Of a stretch of 64,000 bases of DNA, positions 4,729-49,920 are shown piece by piece (position 1 is the first letter of the stretch; each line of letters begins with the position of its first letter). The position numbers and the translations under genes were made by a program. The stretch comes from Escherichia phage AnYang. The notes under the pieces are model-generated. The model had not been told where the DNA came from and did not search any database. It saw only the letters and a list, made by a program, of their open reading frames with translations. The DNA is taken from sequence record MK234886, one strand, 5' to 3'.

Positions 4729-4856
4729 AATTTCCTCAATATGTTAGGTTCTATAATTATTCTATCATAGAACCTGTTAAGCATGGACTGATATTTATAG
4801 AATGAAATTCAGTCCGACCATAATAACCAAAAACAGAGTACAGATTATTTGAATTT

Positions 4857-5720
4857 TCATACAGCCATTTTAGCCTTAATAGTAGGGTGTGATTCGTAAC
4901 CTTTAAGAACGAAATCTTCAGGATACATCATTCCGGTAACCCAAGCCAACTGTTGTTCTGTTGTCCACTCATGGAAATCTTTATGCCAATACCGTATTTC
5001 CAGTTCACAAAGCTCTTTGGGTTCACGACGCAATACTTCTTGGCATTGTTCAACGTGGTTAGAATAGATGTGCGTATTGCCGCCTGAGAACACTAAATCG
5101 CCAGGAATAAGATTACACATCTTAGCTACAATATGCACAAGAGCGGCGTAAGAGGCCATATTAAATGGCAATCCTAAGAACACGTCAACAGAACGTTGGT
5201 ACCATTGGAGGTCAAGATGCCCGTTACGAACGTTGAACTGATAAAAACAGTGGCACGGCGGAAGGGCCATCTTATTAATTTCTGCTGGGTTCCATGCTGA
5301 CACGATTTGACGACGGTCATTAGGCATTTTCTTAATGCGTTCGACAATCTCTACAACCTGGTCGATACCACCAAAATCTCGCCATTGTTTCCCGTACACA
5401 GGGCCCAGTTCGCCATCAGAATATCCCAAATCAACTGCTTGATTTTCATAATTCTCGTCCCAAATAGTTTTGCCTTCAGTGCGTGAACCGTGAGTACGAT
5501 GACGCAGGTCATTAACGTTGGTTGAACCCGACAAGAACCAAAGGAGCTCGGCAATACAGGCTTTCCATGCTAATTTTTTAGTTGTTACCGCCGGGAAGCC
5601 TTTAGTTAAATCAAAACGTAATTTAGTACCGAACAGTGCAATTGTACCAGTGCCAGTACGGTCGTCAGTTTCGTAGCCATTTTCCAGGATATCTTTAATT
5701 AAAAATTGGTATTGTTTCAT
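4857..5720 (-). CDS. td: thymidylate synthase
   Basis: 287 aa; active-site PPCH motif ([11 protein letters not shown]); uninterrupted ORF. Confidence 0.9.
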
Positions 5721-6298
5721 TTGTATACTGTTTCCGTCAGTTTAGTAAGTTCGTCTATTTTATACCAATGGGTTTCAAGCATTTCACGTTGACGAATTTC
5801 ATGAAGGAAGTTTTCTTCCAATTGAACCGTAGAATTCACACGGTGGCATTTCTCAATACGAGAAACAACTACTTCGTCAGCATAAGGCAACGCTGCGTAT
5901 AACAGAGCAGGGCCACCGATTATGCTTGCTTTAGAGCTTGGTCCAAGCATAGGTTCAAAGAACGTATTAGGACTTGATACTTGGATTTCACCACCCGTAA
6001 TAAAGGTTATGTACTGCGCCCATGTGATATAGAAATGAGCGAAATCACCATCTTTAGTTTCAGGATAATCACGGTCAAGGTCGCATACTACGATATGGCT
6101 ACGGCCTGGCAATAATGTAGACAATGATTGGAATGTTTTGGCACCCATAATCATTATTGTACCTTCAGTACGGGCTTTAAAATTCTGGAGGTCCTTTTTA
6201 ACTCGTCCCCATGGAAGCCCGTCACCTAAACCAAATGCATTTTGTTTTGTGCCATCAACCGTTTCAGTTGGAGAATAAGCGAACACTAATTTAATCAT
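5717..6298 (-). CDS. frd: dihydrofolate reductase
   Basis: Internal start [16 protein letters not shown] of the 271-aa track ORF gives a 193-aa DHFR matching T4 Frd; the upstream part of the long ORF overlaps the next gene. Confidence 0.8.
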
Positions 6299-6305
6299 AA
6301 TTTCC

Positions 6306-6545
6306 TCACGCTTTCTTAGCGATTTTCCAGTCAGCTTTAAATTGGTCAACATCGGAGTGGTGAATCCAGAAGCCAGATGAGCTACCGTCTTCATAAAGAG
6401 GGCAGCCATCACACTCATCTTTCCAACCCATCGCACACAAAGCTTGTTCAGCTTTTTCCAGAGCTTCCGGGTTATTACCTTGGATTGTGAAGTACCATTT
6501 GCCTTTAACTTCAGAATCGTTGATTGATTCACGTTGTAATTTCAT
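6306..6545 (-). CDS. hypothetical small protein (frd.1 position)
   Basis: 79-aa ORF preceded by an early-promoter motif. Confidence 0.5.
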
Positions 6546-6570
6546 TTTATTCTCCTTAGTTGATAAGGCT

Positions 6571-6600
6571 ATAGTATCACTACCATAGCCTGGTGTAAAC
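6571..6600 (-). promoter_or_regulatory. T4-type early promoter (-35 GTTTAC, TGn-extended -10 TACTAT)
   Basis: Minus strand reads GTTTAC-N18-TACTATAGCC; upstream of ORF 6306-6545. Confidence 0.55.
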
Positions 6601-6828
6601 TTATTTTTGAATTAAGCCCATATAAAATTTAGCGTCTTCCGGGTGCATACCGTCACAATACTCGTCAGCCATAAAGCGGGTAAGGTCTTCAAGAGGACCT
6701 TGGACTTCAATTTGCATACTGCAGAATTGCGTATCTTTAATATAGGTCATAACTAAAGAAGGATAACGATTACGGATAACTTCGTAAGTGTATTCAAAAT
6801 CAACGATATCAATATTAACCTTAGCCAT
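6601..6828 (-). CDS. hypothetical small protein (frd.2 position)
   Basis: 75-aa ORF preceded by an early-promoter motif. Confidence 0.5.
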
Positions 6829-6858
6829 TTTATTTTCCTCATGTAGTTGATAGGTTCT

Positions 6859-6887
6859 ATAGTATCATGTTTAAAGGCATTGTAAAC
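6859..6887 (-). promoter_or_regulatory. T4-type early promoter
   Basis: GTTTAC-N17-TACTATAGAACCTATCAAC on minus strand; upstream of ORF 6601-6828. Confidence 0.55.
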
Positions 6888-6939
6888 CATTAAATGCCAA
6901 AAAGGGAAGACCGAAGTCTTCCCATTATAAATCAATAAC

Positions 6940-48530: not shown

Positions 48531-48568
48531 TATTTTTCCTTGGGCTCTAAATTAATAGAGCCATTATA

Positions 48569-48730
48569 TCATTCGTTTTCGGATTTTTCTTTACGCTTTT
48601 TAGATGGGATTTGTTCAGGCCCTTTGTTGACGACCGCGCCTGAGGTAGTTCCGGAGGCAATAGCAGTAGGATTACCACCTGCATCACCTGCGACCATATC
48701 TTCGTTCATAACTTCTTTAAAAGATTTCAT
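48569..48730 (-). CDS. hypothetical small protein
   Basis: Manual 53-aa ORF MKSFKEVMNEDMVAGDAGGNPTAIASGTTSGAVVNKGPEQIPSKKRKEKSENE. Confidence 0.3.
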   Translation of the reverse strand: MKSFKEVMNEDMVAGDAGGNPTAIASGTTSGAVVNKGPEQIPSKKRKEKSENE

Positions 48731-48746
48731 AGGCTCCTGGCCTTAT

Positions 48747-48938
48747 TTATATTACGAAAATAGCTTTATCACCATTTGCATCAGTGACTTCATAGGTATC
48801 TTCGTTGTAAAGTGGAATAATCCAAGTCACACCATCACCAGCAATAATATGGATAGCTTCTTGGTCTTTTGATACGATTTCATATTCTTCGAATAATTCG
48901 AATACAGAAATCTTAGAGCCCGTACACATTGCACTCAT
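48747..48938 (-). CDS. hypothetical protein
   Basis: 63-aa ORF. Confidence 0.4.
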   Translation of the reverse strand: MSAMCTGSKISVFELFEEYEIVSKDQEAIHIIAGDGVTWIIPLYNEDTYEVTDANGDKAIFVI

Positions 48939-49134
48939 ATTGTTCCCTTCTTTTAATCAGTTGACGATGAGCCTTTTTAAGTTTGCGAAGCTGACGTTTA
49001 GTTGGCCGCGCAACATAAGCTTGAGTAGTTACTCGTCCAAAAACACCGTACTTAGGTGAAGGAGAATCGATAAAGACTTCCCACTGACAAGAGTAACTAT
49101 ACACTGCTTTAGAGAATTGAGTTAAGACAAACAT
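48913..49134 (-). CDS. hypothetical basic-tailed protein (paralog of 49922-50161)
   Basis: 73 aa; shares WEV and ARPTKRQLRKLKK block with the other copy. Confidence 0.4.
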   Translation of the reverse strand: MFVLTQFSKAVYSYSCQWEVFIDSPSPKYGVFGRVTTQAYVARPTKRQLRKLKKAHRQLIKRREQYECNVYGL

Positions 49135-49135
49135 A

Positions 49136-49576
49136 TTAACCTCGATTCATAAAGGCATTAAAAATCTGGTCATCGATTGAATAAACCGGGGCCTCCAGAA
49201 TTTTCAACAGACTATTTTTGATGTACTTGCTAGGGATATCCATATTAACGCCGTCATTCAATTCGTTGTCCGGGAGGATGTCTTTAAATTCAAATCCATC
49301 AAACTCAACCTTGTCGGGAATACCTTCAGCGAAAAAATAAACCAATTGGTGCATTGCATTGCACGAAAATAATTTAGACCTCACCGCAATAAGTTCTTGC
49401 CAATGGTTTAATTCTCTGTTAAGAAGTTTATGAGCCATTGTAATTCTATCATCACTATCAACAAGAAAATAACCTAGGTATTGGTGGTCGTCGCTCCAAT
49501 ACATCCGGTATGCTTGTGCATTTGGATTTTTACAACGAAGTTTTTTGATAACTAAATTTCTGTTAATCTTATTCAC
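49136..49576 (-). CDS. hypothetical protein
   Basis: 146-aa ORF. Confidence 0.5.
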   Translation of the reverse strand: MNKINRNLVIKKLRCKNPNAQAYRMYWSDDHQYLGYFLVDSDDRITMAHKLLNRELNHWQELIAVRSKLFSCNAMHQLVYFFAEGIPDKVEFDGFEFKDILPDNELNDGVNMDIPSKYIKNSLLKILEAPVYSIDDQIFNAFMNRG

Positions 49577-49862
49577 CTGTCACCTCTTTAACGATATTTT
49601 TGTTATCGAAATTGGCATCGCAATACAAAACATAGTTATATTGCATAACACCACCTGAAGCTAATTGGTCTGACACTTCTTTAGCCATATTAGGGCGGTC
49701 GCGTTTAGTGATGTTCATGATATCGGCATAAATCTGGTGTTCAACCGATTCTTGGTCTGCAGTCATAGACCATTCACAAAGGTCTTTATCCAATCCAGCC
49801 GTAACTGGAGCCGTACCACATGATGCTACTGTAAGGATTGCTGCGATTAATAACTTTTTCAT
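49569..49862 (-). CDS. putative lipoprotein
   Basis: Track ORF trimmed to MKKLLIAAILTVASCG (signal peptide plus lipobox); promoter motif upstream. Confidence 0.55.
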   Translation of the reverse strand: MKKLLIAAILTVASCGTAPVTAGLDKDLCEWSMTADQESVEHQIYADIMNITKRDRPNMAKEVSDQLASGGVMQYNYVLYCDANFDNKNIVKEVTGE

Positions 49863-49890
49863 TTTTAACTCCTCGTTAGTTGATAGGTCT

Positions 49891-49920
49891 ATAGTATCAC
49901 TACCATAGACCGTTGTAAAC
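49891..49920 (-). promoter_or_regulatory. T4-type early promoter
   Basis: GTTTAC-N18-TACTATAGACCTATCAACTAACGAGGAG; perfect inverted repeat. Confidence 0.6.

Follow-up and report, generated by a model that had tools for sequence, protein, structure and literature searches.

Repeated intergenic cassettes that combine an early promoter with a stem-loop have been described in several phages, and the present analysis concerns elements of this kind in a 64,000-nucleotide stretch of Escherichia phage AnYang (sequence record MK234886), referred to as a whole as the window. The initial annotation of this DNA had listed five inverted repeats at -10/leader segments, numbered here as sites 1 to 5 by position, and had proposed that they form either a 5' stem-loop controlling stability or translation or a dimeric protein-binding site. 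In the available excerpts of Arbiol et al. 2010 (PMC2839356), the composite early-promoter/stem-loop cassettes (PeSLs) of phages RB49 and phi1 have the stem-loop mostly between -35 and -10 or overlapping -10 and are implicated in the shuffling of open reading frames (ORFs) and in mini-circle formation. The same excerpts report that one phi1/RB49 PeSL stem-loop was shown to terminate strongly and that crossovers were mapped in or next to the stem-loop, and the authors speculated about a stem-binding recombination protein.

In the excerpts of Comeau et al. 2014 (PMC4122927), the PeSLs are extended to PST/T4 and nt-1/KVP40, the PST/T4 early consensus is given as TTTACW-N17-TAYWAT, and cassettes with a Mot-box, the PmSLs, are defined. 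Phage JS98 receives only a passing mention in the excerpted PeSL literature, for 'PeSL-like sequences' near gene 43. T4 early promoters are described as UP/-35/TGn/-10, and MotA-dependent middle promoters as having a TGCTT-core box centred near -30, with 11-13 bp between it and the sigma-70 -10 downstream (PMC2988021). Hairpins that act only on RNA started upstream are known from the T4 genes e, soc, 49 and I-TevI (PMC3014915).

The elements of the window are of this known kind, PeSL/PmSL cassettes, and the JS98-type phage group is where, as far as the excerpts go, they had not previously been laid out. They share with the PeSLs, as excerpted, the repeated intergenic cassette composed of A/T-rich sequence, an early promoter of sigma-70 type, a stem-loop and the Shine-Dalgarno sequence (SD) and ATG of the next gene, as well as the tie to small-ORF insertions and deletions (indels) between close relatives; the placement of the stem-loop between -35 and -10 or over -10 in RB49/phi1 is exactly that seen in the window. 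They differ from the RB49/phi1 elements in that the stems of the latter are poly-G/poly-C, whereas those of the window are of mixed sequence, contain G.U pairs and have no U-tract; in PST/T4, the stem-loops are drawn just upstream of the promoter. A sense-strand G.U bias, exclusivity with terminators and two fixed registers were not found reported in the excerpts of either article. We consider it fairly probable that the repeats are PeSL/PmSL cassettes in which the stem has been selected as an RNA hairpin of read-through transcripts, where it stands in for a terminator hairpin at compact gene junctions.

The promoter cassette and its inverted repeats

A position-weight scan together with a looser pattern found 17 copies of the promoter in the window. 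Read on the minus strand, the cassette runs from an A-rich tract through GTTTACA or TATACA and a 17-nt spacer with TGn at its end to one of the hexamers TACTAT, TATTAT and TAAGAT, followed by the segment AGACCTATCAAC, the SD and ATG. These are the parts of a predicted sigma-70-type early promoter, with -35 and -10 about 17 nt apart and A/T-rich sequence upstream; they agree both with the early consensus published for PST/T4 and with UP/-35/TGn/-10, as T4 early promoters are described. The copies are intergenic, and GAGG or GGAG with an ATG within 15-45 nt is present at the 3' end of every one of them. The segment AGACCTATCAAC, which comprises the discriminator and the initial transcribed sequence, is almost invariant among the early promoters of the window (e.g., 49880-49890, 6560-6570 and 25415-25425), and in the Enterobacter/Klebsiella group its place is taken by CTACACCAAC.

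All five of the inverted repeats listed initially are present in the sequence. The coordinates given for site 2 (6567-6590), site 3 (25424-25449) and site 5 (49886-49911) are right; the arms of site 2 extend to 7 bp (AGGCTAT/ATAGCCT, 6566-6591) and those of site 3 to 8 bp (25423-25450), while site 5 has 7-bp arms and a 12-nt loop. The repeat at site 1 had been placed at 4746-4773, and its arms lie one base further right (GGTTCTAT, 4747-4754, and ATAGAACC, 4767-4774); once A4746 and T4775 are counted, the perfect arms amount to 9 bp around a loop of 12 nt. Site 4 keeps its position (37355-37378) and its 7-bp arms, with a loop of 10 nt instead of 12-13 nt. It had also been remarked that other copies lack the second arm, and this holds for promoters 50854, 42502, 29275, 25733, 23056 and 6864, which have the 3' motif and no complementary spacer.

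In each repeat, the 5' arm lies inside the spacer between -35 and -10, and the 3' arm is made up of the last bases of -10 and the discriminator, ending 1-2 nt before the predicted +1. Because of this end point, the promoter's own transcript would contain neither arm and both would be present only in RNA started further upstream, and a stem-loop in the local transcript's 5' untranslated region was ruled out by geometry. The genes adjoining all five repeats are on the minus strand. These genes and the polarity of the promoters rule out a plus-strand reading of the motifs as 'leaders'.

Predicted folding of the read-through RNA

In folds of the sense RNA, pairing continues into the supposed 12-nt loops, giving stems of 10-12 bp with one G.U and loops of 4-6 nt, which refines the initial description of 6-8 bp arms around loops of 12-13 nt. 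The folded set comprised the six embedded hairpins of the sp, frd.1-like, motA, cef, motB and ndd promoters. Their predicted sense-strand energies range from -13.3 to -16.9 kcal/mol (z from -3.7 to -6.5 against shuffles), compared with -8.0 to -11.8 kcal/mol for the antisense RNA; for the hairpin of the DUF5417 (frd.1-like) gene the two values are -15.6 and -10.9 kcal/mol. The predicted folds place a stable stem-loop in or beside the promoter, and transcripts beginning at the predicted +1 would be nearly unstructured (0 to -3 kcal/mol). The stem near nrdA was taken from a longer fold of its intergenic region and stands outside the sense/antisense comparison; its design is the same as that of the other embedded hairpins.

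The hairpins occur in two registers. In register 1, exemplified by the sp promoter, the 3' arm takes in the entire -10 and the loop is GNRA-like, while in register 2 a hexaloop is formed by the two bases before -10 and the first four bases of -10 (gaUACU, guUAUA and gaUAAG). At the five listed sites, the SD and AUG lie outside the helix, which ends 3-11 nt before the SD. A search of the whole window against the Rfam gathering thresholds gave no match.

Frequency of the hairpins and their relation to terminators

A perfect stem of at least 7 bp with its 5' arm upstream of the predicted start is present in 8 of 16 promoter copies (the first 16 of the 17). Shuffling of the spacers, limited to their variable bases, yielded a mean of 2.3 such stems, and none of 2000 shuffles reached 8. 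A length of 7 bp was attained by 14% of chimeras between non-cognate spacers and downstream segments and by 6.9% of random window segments (binomial P = 4e-6 for the promoters). The arm sequences themselves are unrelated among the sites (GGTCTAT, TAGGGTA, AGAGCCAT and CGAGAATCAT).

The analysis of 147 distinct promoter cores showed that an embedded hairpin is never combined with a canonical terminator just upstream (0 of 27 cores), while it occurs in 56 of the 120 cores without such a terminator (p = 4.5e-7). The same was found at the level of the 67 orthologue groups, with 0/13 against 19/54 (p = 0.0135). Within the window, the promoters fall into mutually exclusive classes: four with a terminator, six with an embedded hairpin, three with a hairpin masking the SD, and four with none of these. 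Promoters 59063, 42502, 29275 and 23056 have no embedded hairpin, no SD-masking hairpin and no upstream terminator.

The two kinds of element also replace each other between phages. At the nrdA junction, the VR20/25/26-like phages have a GC-rich hairpin followed by a U-tract (ATTTTAT) in place of the stem, and at the gene that follows gp32 a terminator and a plain promoter are present in the window, where JS98 has extra ORFs and a hairpin-promoter. Another arrangement was observed at motA in JS98 and VR5 (contigs L004-L006, ~1400-1460), where a stem without a U-tract, GAGCTCTT-gaaa-AAGAGCTC, lies just upstream of the -35. This promoter has no embedded hairpin, and the stem represents a third placement of an intercistronic hairpin.

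Orthologous promoters and covariation

Loci around the orthologues of motA, sp, the DUF5417 gene, cef and nrdA were taken from viral contigs, among which we take JS98, VR5, QL01 and VR20/25/26-like phages to be represented. According to BLAST, other contigs match the Enterobacter phage CIP9 group and the Salmonella phage CGG4-1/STP4-a group. The orthologous promoters retain the stem at the same place relative to -10, with the arms wholly changed. At sp the arms are GGTCTAT/ATAGACC, GGGATAAT/ATTATCCC, GGGGTAAT/ATTATCCC (with G.U), GGACTA/TAGTCC and, with U.G, ATGGACC; at the DUF5417 gene they are AGGCTAT/ATAGCCT, CAGGGTAAT/ATTACCCTG, GGGTTAT/ATAACCC and GGTGTAGAGG/CTTCTACACC, as well as AAGGCTAT and GGGCTAT (G.U). 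The cef promoters have TAGGGTA/TACCCTA or GGTAGGAGC, the partner of the latter being GCTCCTACC in one phage and, with G.U, GTTCCTACC in that phage's relative. The nrdA stem is retained as a U.G variant in two contigs (L076 and L093) and, with three wobble pairs and a changed -10, in VR5 (L079), while the embedded hairpin of motA is confined to relatives with this version of the upstream small-ORF cassette (L002).

Covariation between the arms was scored on unselected sets. For register 2, 100 promoter cores gave 0.247 against 0.176 when shuffled, a value reached in 0 of 500 shuffles, and slid controls did not exceed 0.162. All ten orthologues of the cef promoter gave 0.364 against 0.180 (again 0/500), with slid controls of at most 0.196.

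The T4 motB promoter carries GGACCA-gagtataa-TGGTCC at the same place as the motB hairpin of the window. Embedded-hairpin promoters were found in T4 upstream of dmd, motB.2, motB, the cef region and the frd region, that is, at 5 of 22 early-promoter-like sites in 83 kb, a number obtained with the same permissive pattern scan as in the window (the RefSeq record has no promoter or terminator features); these 22 probably include false positives. In the T4 record NC_000866 (L157 and L158), predicted early promoters near positions 20588, 8194, 7191, 6606 and 146119 hold hairpins with energies of -16 to -22 kcal/mol.

Strand bias of the imperfect pairs

Stems were also searched with one interior mismatch of any type, counted if they had at least 8 Watson-Crick pairs and collapsed to distinct contexts. 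On the sense strand, 13 distinct contexts had G.T as the mismatch, one had A.C and none had another type, whereas the spacer-shuffled controls contained 262 G.T and 241 A.C, with other mismatch types in the majority. When selection was strand-symmetric, 18 of 25 orthologue groups had the more stable fold on the sense strand (Wilcoxon 0.005). Two other counts were set aside: 36 G.T against 4 A.C before collapsing, which is inflated by paralogous cassettes, and 17 of 19 groups in favour of the sense strand, which is biased by selecting the groups on sense-strand energy. The pairing appears to be selected on the sense strand, most simply as RNA, because a protein site in duplex DNA or a cruciform would not tolerate wobble on one strand only. 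Regarding the stem-loop first proposed for these sites, RNA pairing is borne out by the covariation, the sense-only G.U pairs and the more stable sense fold, and what does not hold is its location in the 5' leader of the local transcript.

Cassette-bounded indels

Small-ORF insertion, deletion or replacement between close relatives was found at the motA-proximal ORF and in the interval between gp32 and the DUF5417 gene. The 73-aa ORF that the window has between promoters 25733 and 25434 (~25400-25760) is absent from QL01-like contigs (L001 and L003, ~1380-1500), in which a single hybrid promoter has its junction inside the shared TACTATAGACCTATCAA; by sequence, this absence is a clean cassette-mediated indel. 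The gp32-DUF5417 interval (window 6545-6940) is hyperplastic, with a single small ORF in the window and three or four in the JS98, QL01 and VR-type relatives (L027-L034, 3300-5000), and promoter cassettes bound each module. It always opens with a terminator and a plain promoter, and its internal boundaries are mostly hairpin-promoters.

Coordinates, neighbouring genes and related promoters

The coordinates of the hairpins and related features are collected in Table 1.

Table 1. Promoter-associated hairpins of the window, related variants and a terminator for contrast (all on the minus strand).
Feature	Position	Strand	Structure	Energy (kcal/mol) and remarks
Hairpin in nrdA-proximal promoter (PmSL-type), site 1	4746..4775	-	RNA stem AGGUUCUAUGAU-agaaua-AUUAUAGAACCU	12 bp, one G.U
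Hairpin in DUF5417 (frd.1-like) early promoter, site 2	6566..6591	-	AGGCUAUGGUA-GUGA-UACUAUAGCCU	-10 TACTAT entirely in 3' arm
Hairpin in motA early promoter, site 3	25423..25450	-	AGGUCUAUGAUA-AUGU-UAUUAUAGACCU	-14.6; z = -6.5
Hairpin in cef early promoter, site 4	37352..37381	-	UGGUAGGGUAGU-GAUAAG-AUUACCCUAUCA	-16.9; loop includes first four -10 bases
Hairpin in sp (Spackle) early promoter, site 5	49886..49911	-	GGUCUAUGGUA-GUGA-UACUAUAGACC	-16.0
Same-kind hairpin, motB early promoter	38007..38030	-	AGAGCCAU-guuaua-AUGGCUCU	-14.2; absent from the initial list
Same-kind hairpin, ndd early promoter	28105..28130	-	CGAGAAUCAU-guuaua-AUGGUUCUCG	-13.3; one U.G; absent from the initial list
Related variant, promoter 39132	39104..39149	-	Spacer UUCUCCUCAUG pairs with SD region of downstream gene CAUGAGGAGAA	Perfect 11 bp
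Related variant, promoter 28861	28833..28879	-	Spacer CAUCUCCAUUA pairs with SD region UAAUGGAGAUG	-16.0; perfect 11 bp
Related variant, rnh promoter (11458)	11422..11454	-	-10 end and discriminator AUGAACCUCU pair with SD/AUG region AGAGGUUCAU	Perfect 10 bp
Canonical intrinsic terminator (contrast case)	25780..25799	-	AAGGAACCTTCGGGTTCCTT then TTTTGGG	Immediately upstream of promoter 25733, which has no embedded hairpin

The JS98-group T4-type coliphages FB, MX01, Bp7 and IME08 are 95-96% identical to a 5-kb piece of the window, a match that covers td, nrdA, frd and gene 32, and on this sequence evidence the window is assigned to a JS98/Bp7-like T4-type coliphage. According to Pfam, the genes downstream of the listed sites are motA (MotA_activ, 3.8e-39), a DUF5417 gene (frd.1-like), cef and sp/Spackle, while motB and ndd follow the further hairpins and rnh follows a related variant. 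The initial annotation had correctly named the neighbours nrdA, which lies under the JS98-group match, and motA.

In the promoter near nrdA, the -10 TAGAAT (plus-strand positions 4759-4764) lies within the loop and the 5' arm, and a MotA-box-like TGCTTAA is found at plus-strand positions 4777-4783, the order being aTGCTTAAc, 12 nt and TAGAAT. This has the organisation of a candidate MotA-dependent middle promoter, and the nrdA site is predicted to be the middle-promoter version of the cassette because TGCTTAA stands 12 nt upstream of TAGAAT. Like the PmSL of Vibrio phage nt-1, as excerpted from PMC4122927, it joins a TGCTT Mot-box and a suitably spaced -10 with a stem-loop; the differences are that it belongs to a JS98-group coliphage and that its stem encloses the -10. 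A second minus-strand hairpin, GGACTGA/TCAGTCC, was observed in the td-nrdA intergenic region (4785-4815), and its 17-nt loop holds TATAAATA, the T4 late-promoter consensus. The td-nrdA junction may stack late, middle and read-through control.

At three sister promoters (39132, 28861 and 11458), the predicted helix takes in the SD or AUG of the following gene, and this pairing would be possible only in read-through RNA. For the first of them, the read-through RNA has a predicted energy of -19.5 kcal/mol compared with 0.0 for the predicted primary transcript. The scheme is the same as that of T4 e, soc, 49 and I-TevI, in which the promoter lies inside the hairpin region, so that RNA started upstream folds and the local RNA is without the 5' arm. 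The T4 cases are late promoters with the helix over the ribosome-binding site, in contrast to the five listed repeats, which are early or middle and have a helix 3-11 nt short of the SD.

Discussion

The proposed function can be outlined as follows. As DNA, the segment would be a strong sigma-70 early promoter, and it would be copied in full into RNA only when polymerase reads through from a promoter further upstream. In such read-through RNA, the spacer would pair with the -10 hexamer and the discriminator into a hairpin of 10-12 bp with a loop of 4-6 nt, ending at the point where the local transcript would start. Each gene would then be represented by two RNA species, a local mRNA with an open leader and a read-through RNA with a stable intercistronic hairpin. 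The hairpin would do the job of a terminator hairpin, either attenuating read-through or blocking 3'-to-5' decay, and so delimit the upstream message. It would have been fitted into the only freely variable bases of an intergenic region of ~60 nt. At the sister promoters, the same device would bury the SD or AUG in read-through RNA, and the conserved cassettes would serve, in addition, as recombination points for the gain and loss of small ORFs.

Several observations weigh against this explanation. The embedded hairpins resemble intrinsic terminators as stable sense-strand intergenic hairpins that are positionally interchangeable with them at other junctions and in other phages, but they are less GC-rich and no U-tract follows them, the tails being UAUCAAC, UAACAUA, CAACAAG or CAAC. 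A terminator scan of positions 23000-40000 called none of those lying in this interval, while the true terminator at 25780-25799 was called. Identity with intrinsic terminators, defined by a GC-rich hairpin and a U-rich tract, was rejected for want of the U-tract, and classical intrinsic termination at these hairpins is unlikely because there is no U-tract and the scan does not call those within its interval. On whether the hairpin attenuates upstream transcription, the sequence evidence points both ways, with terminator exclusivity on one side and the missing U-tract on the other. The hairpin is also not obligatory, as neither hairpin nor terminator is found at 4 of the 17 window promoters and in 29 of the 67 orthologue groups. 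For register 1 (the GGTCTAT family), slid controls were as high as the structure in the pooled covariation, because the pooled set mixes the two registers; this register belongs to a single cassette family, and paralogous copies of the cassette account for much of its recurrence. The position of +1 is deduced from that of -10, and a literature search for the mapping of transcript ends in T4-type phages found nothing usable. Moreover, all early genes are on one strand, and RNA sense is therefore inseparable from a strand-specific process in single-stranded DNA.

In a rival view, which we regard as unlikely, the stem-loop is not an RNA element and matters mainly as single-stranded DNA, as a structure or recognition site that promotes cassette recombination (PeSL mini-circles, ORF shuffling). 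It would fit this confounding of the sense strand with one DNA strand, the cassette-bounded ORF indels at motA and between gp32 and the DUF5417 gene, the crossovers mapped in or next to the stem-loop and the stem-binding protein speculated on in the PeSL excerpts (PMC2839356), as well as the fact that DNA hairpins tolerate G.T too. However, the promoter sequence that the cassettes share is sufficient for homologous recombination, the motA junction falls in the shared TACTATAGACCTATCAA, and cassettes without a hairpin recombine as well; neither the exclusivity of embedded hairpins and terminators nor the aiming of the sister spacers at the SD is accounted for. Template switching at quasi-palindromes is a classical mutational process of T4, and the repeats might persist neutrally, without function, as a duplicated palindromic cassette or as products of such mutagenesis ('quasi-palindrome correction'). 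Sites 2 and 5 have an identical CTATGGTAGTGATACTATAG core, so that part of the recurrence in the window is indeed paralogy. Against this stand the independent arms at orthologous positions across several genera and the non-random distribution relative to terminators, and template switching would leave perfect Watson-Crick palindromes, not a one-strand G.U bias; absence of function is thus very unlikely.

The remaining explanations place the effect at the promoter itself. Arms of 11-12 bp with centres of 4-6 bp have a size that can extrude in supercoiled DNA, and the extended repeats cover the -10, so that a cruciform or an altered spacer geometry under supercoiling could tune initiation. In a cruciform, pairing has to occur on both strands, yet the antisense one has C.A mismatches and folds 2-8 kcal/mol worse, and an effect on the repeat's own promoter gives no reason for exclusivity with upstream terminators, which makes this highly improbable. 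Hardly any weight can be given to the possibility that the repeats are operators at which a dimeric phage or host protein covers the -10 and represses a subset of early promoters, although the dyad symmetry lies over -10 and the inner bases CTAT/ATAG recur in four of the five listed sites. A palindromic operator has a conserved half-site, fixed spacing and symmetry on both strands. Here the arms are unrelated between sites and between orthologues (GGGATAAT, GGTGTAGAGG, GGTAGGAGC and GGACCA in T4) with pairing kept throughout, the imperfections are G.T on one strand by 13 to 1, equal to a C.A mismatch on the other, and the dyad centre is shifted by 3 bp between the two registers. The changing arms and the one-strand exceptions speak in the same way against the dimeric protein-binding site of the initial annotation.

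If the stem is indeed selected as an RNA hairpin of read-through transcripts, these elements are a case of dense dual coding, in which ~40 bp act as a very strong promoter in DNA and encode a selected hairpin in RNA, a pattern conserved from T4 to Salmonella and Enterobacter phages. In annotation, palindromes at the -10 of T4-type phages should not be taken for operators or for stem-loops of the 5' untranslated region. The PeSL model is also sharpened, as the stems appear to be selected on one strand and to replace canonical terminators, yet they have no U-tract. With its dmd, motB and cef promoters, T4 offers a setting in which their effect on read-through early RNA is directly testable.

More tentatively, and with considerable doubt on our part, promoter-embedded hairpins without a U-tract may be a general 'transcript-origin tag' in the early regions of Tevenvirinae, with the spacer selected to encode the 5' arm so that read-through and local RNA differ in structure. 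One version would be a U-tract-independent attenuator or a barrier to 3' decay that cuts long early transcripts into separately stable units, and another would mask the ribosome-binding site. Were this so, a mode of termination or processing without a U-tract would be implied, and the principle known from e, soc and 49 would hold for a large share of the early genes and not just for a few late ones.

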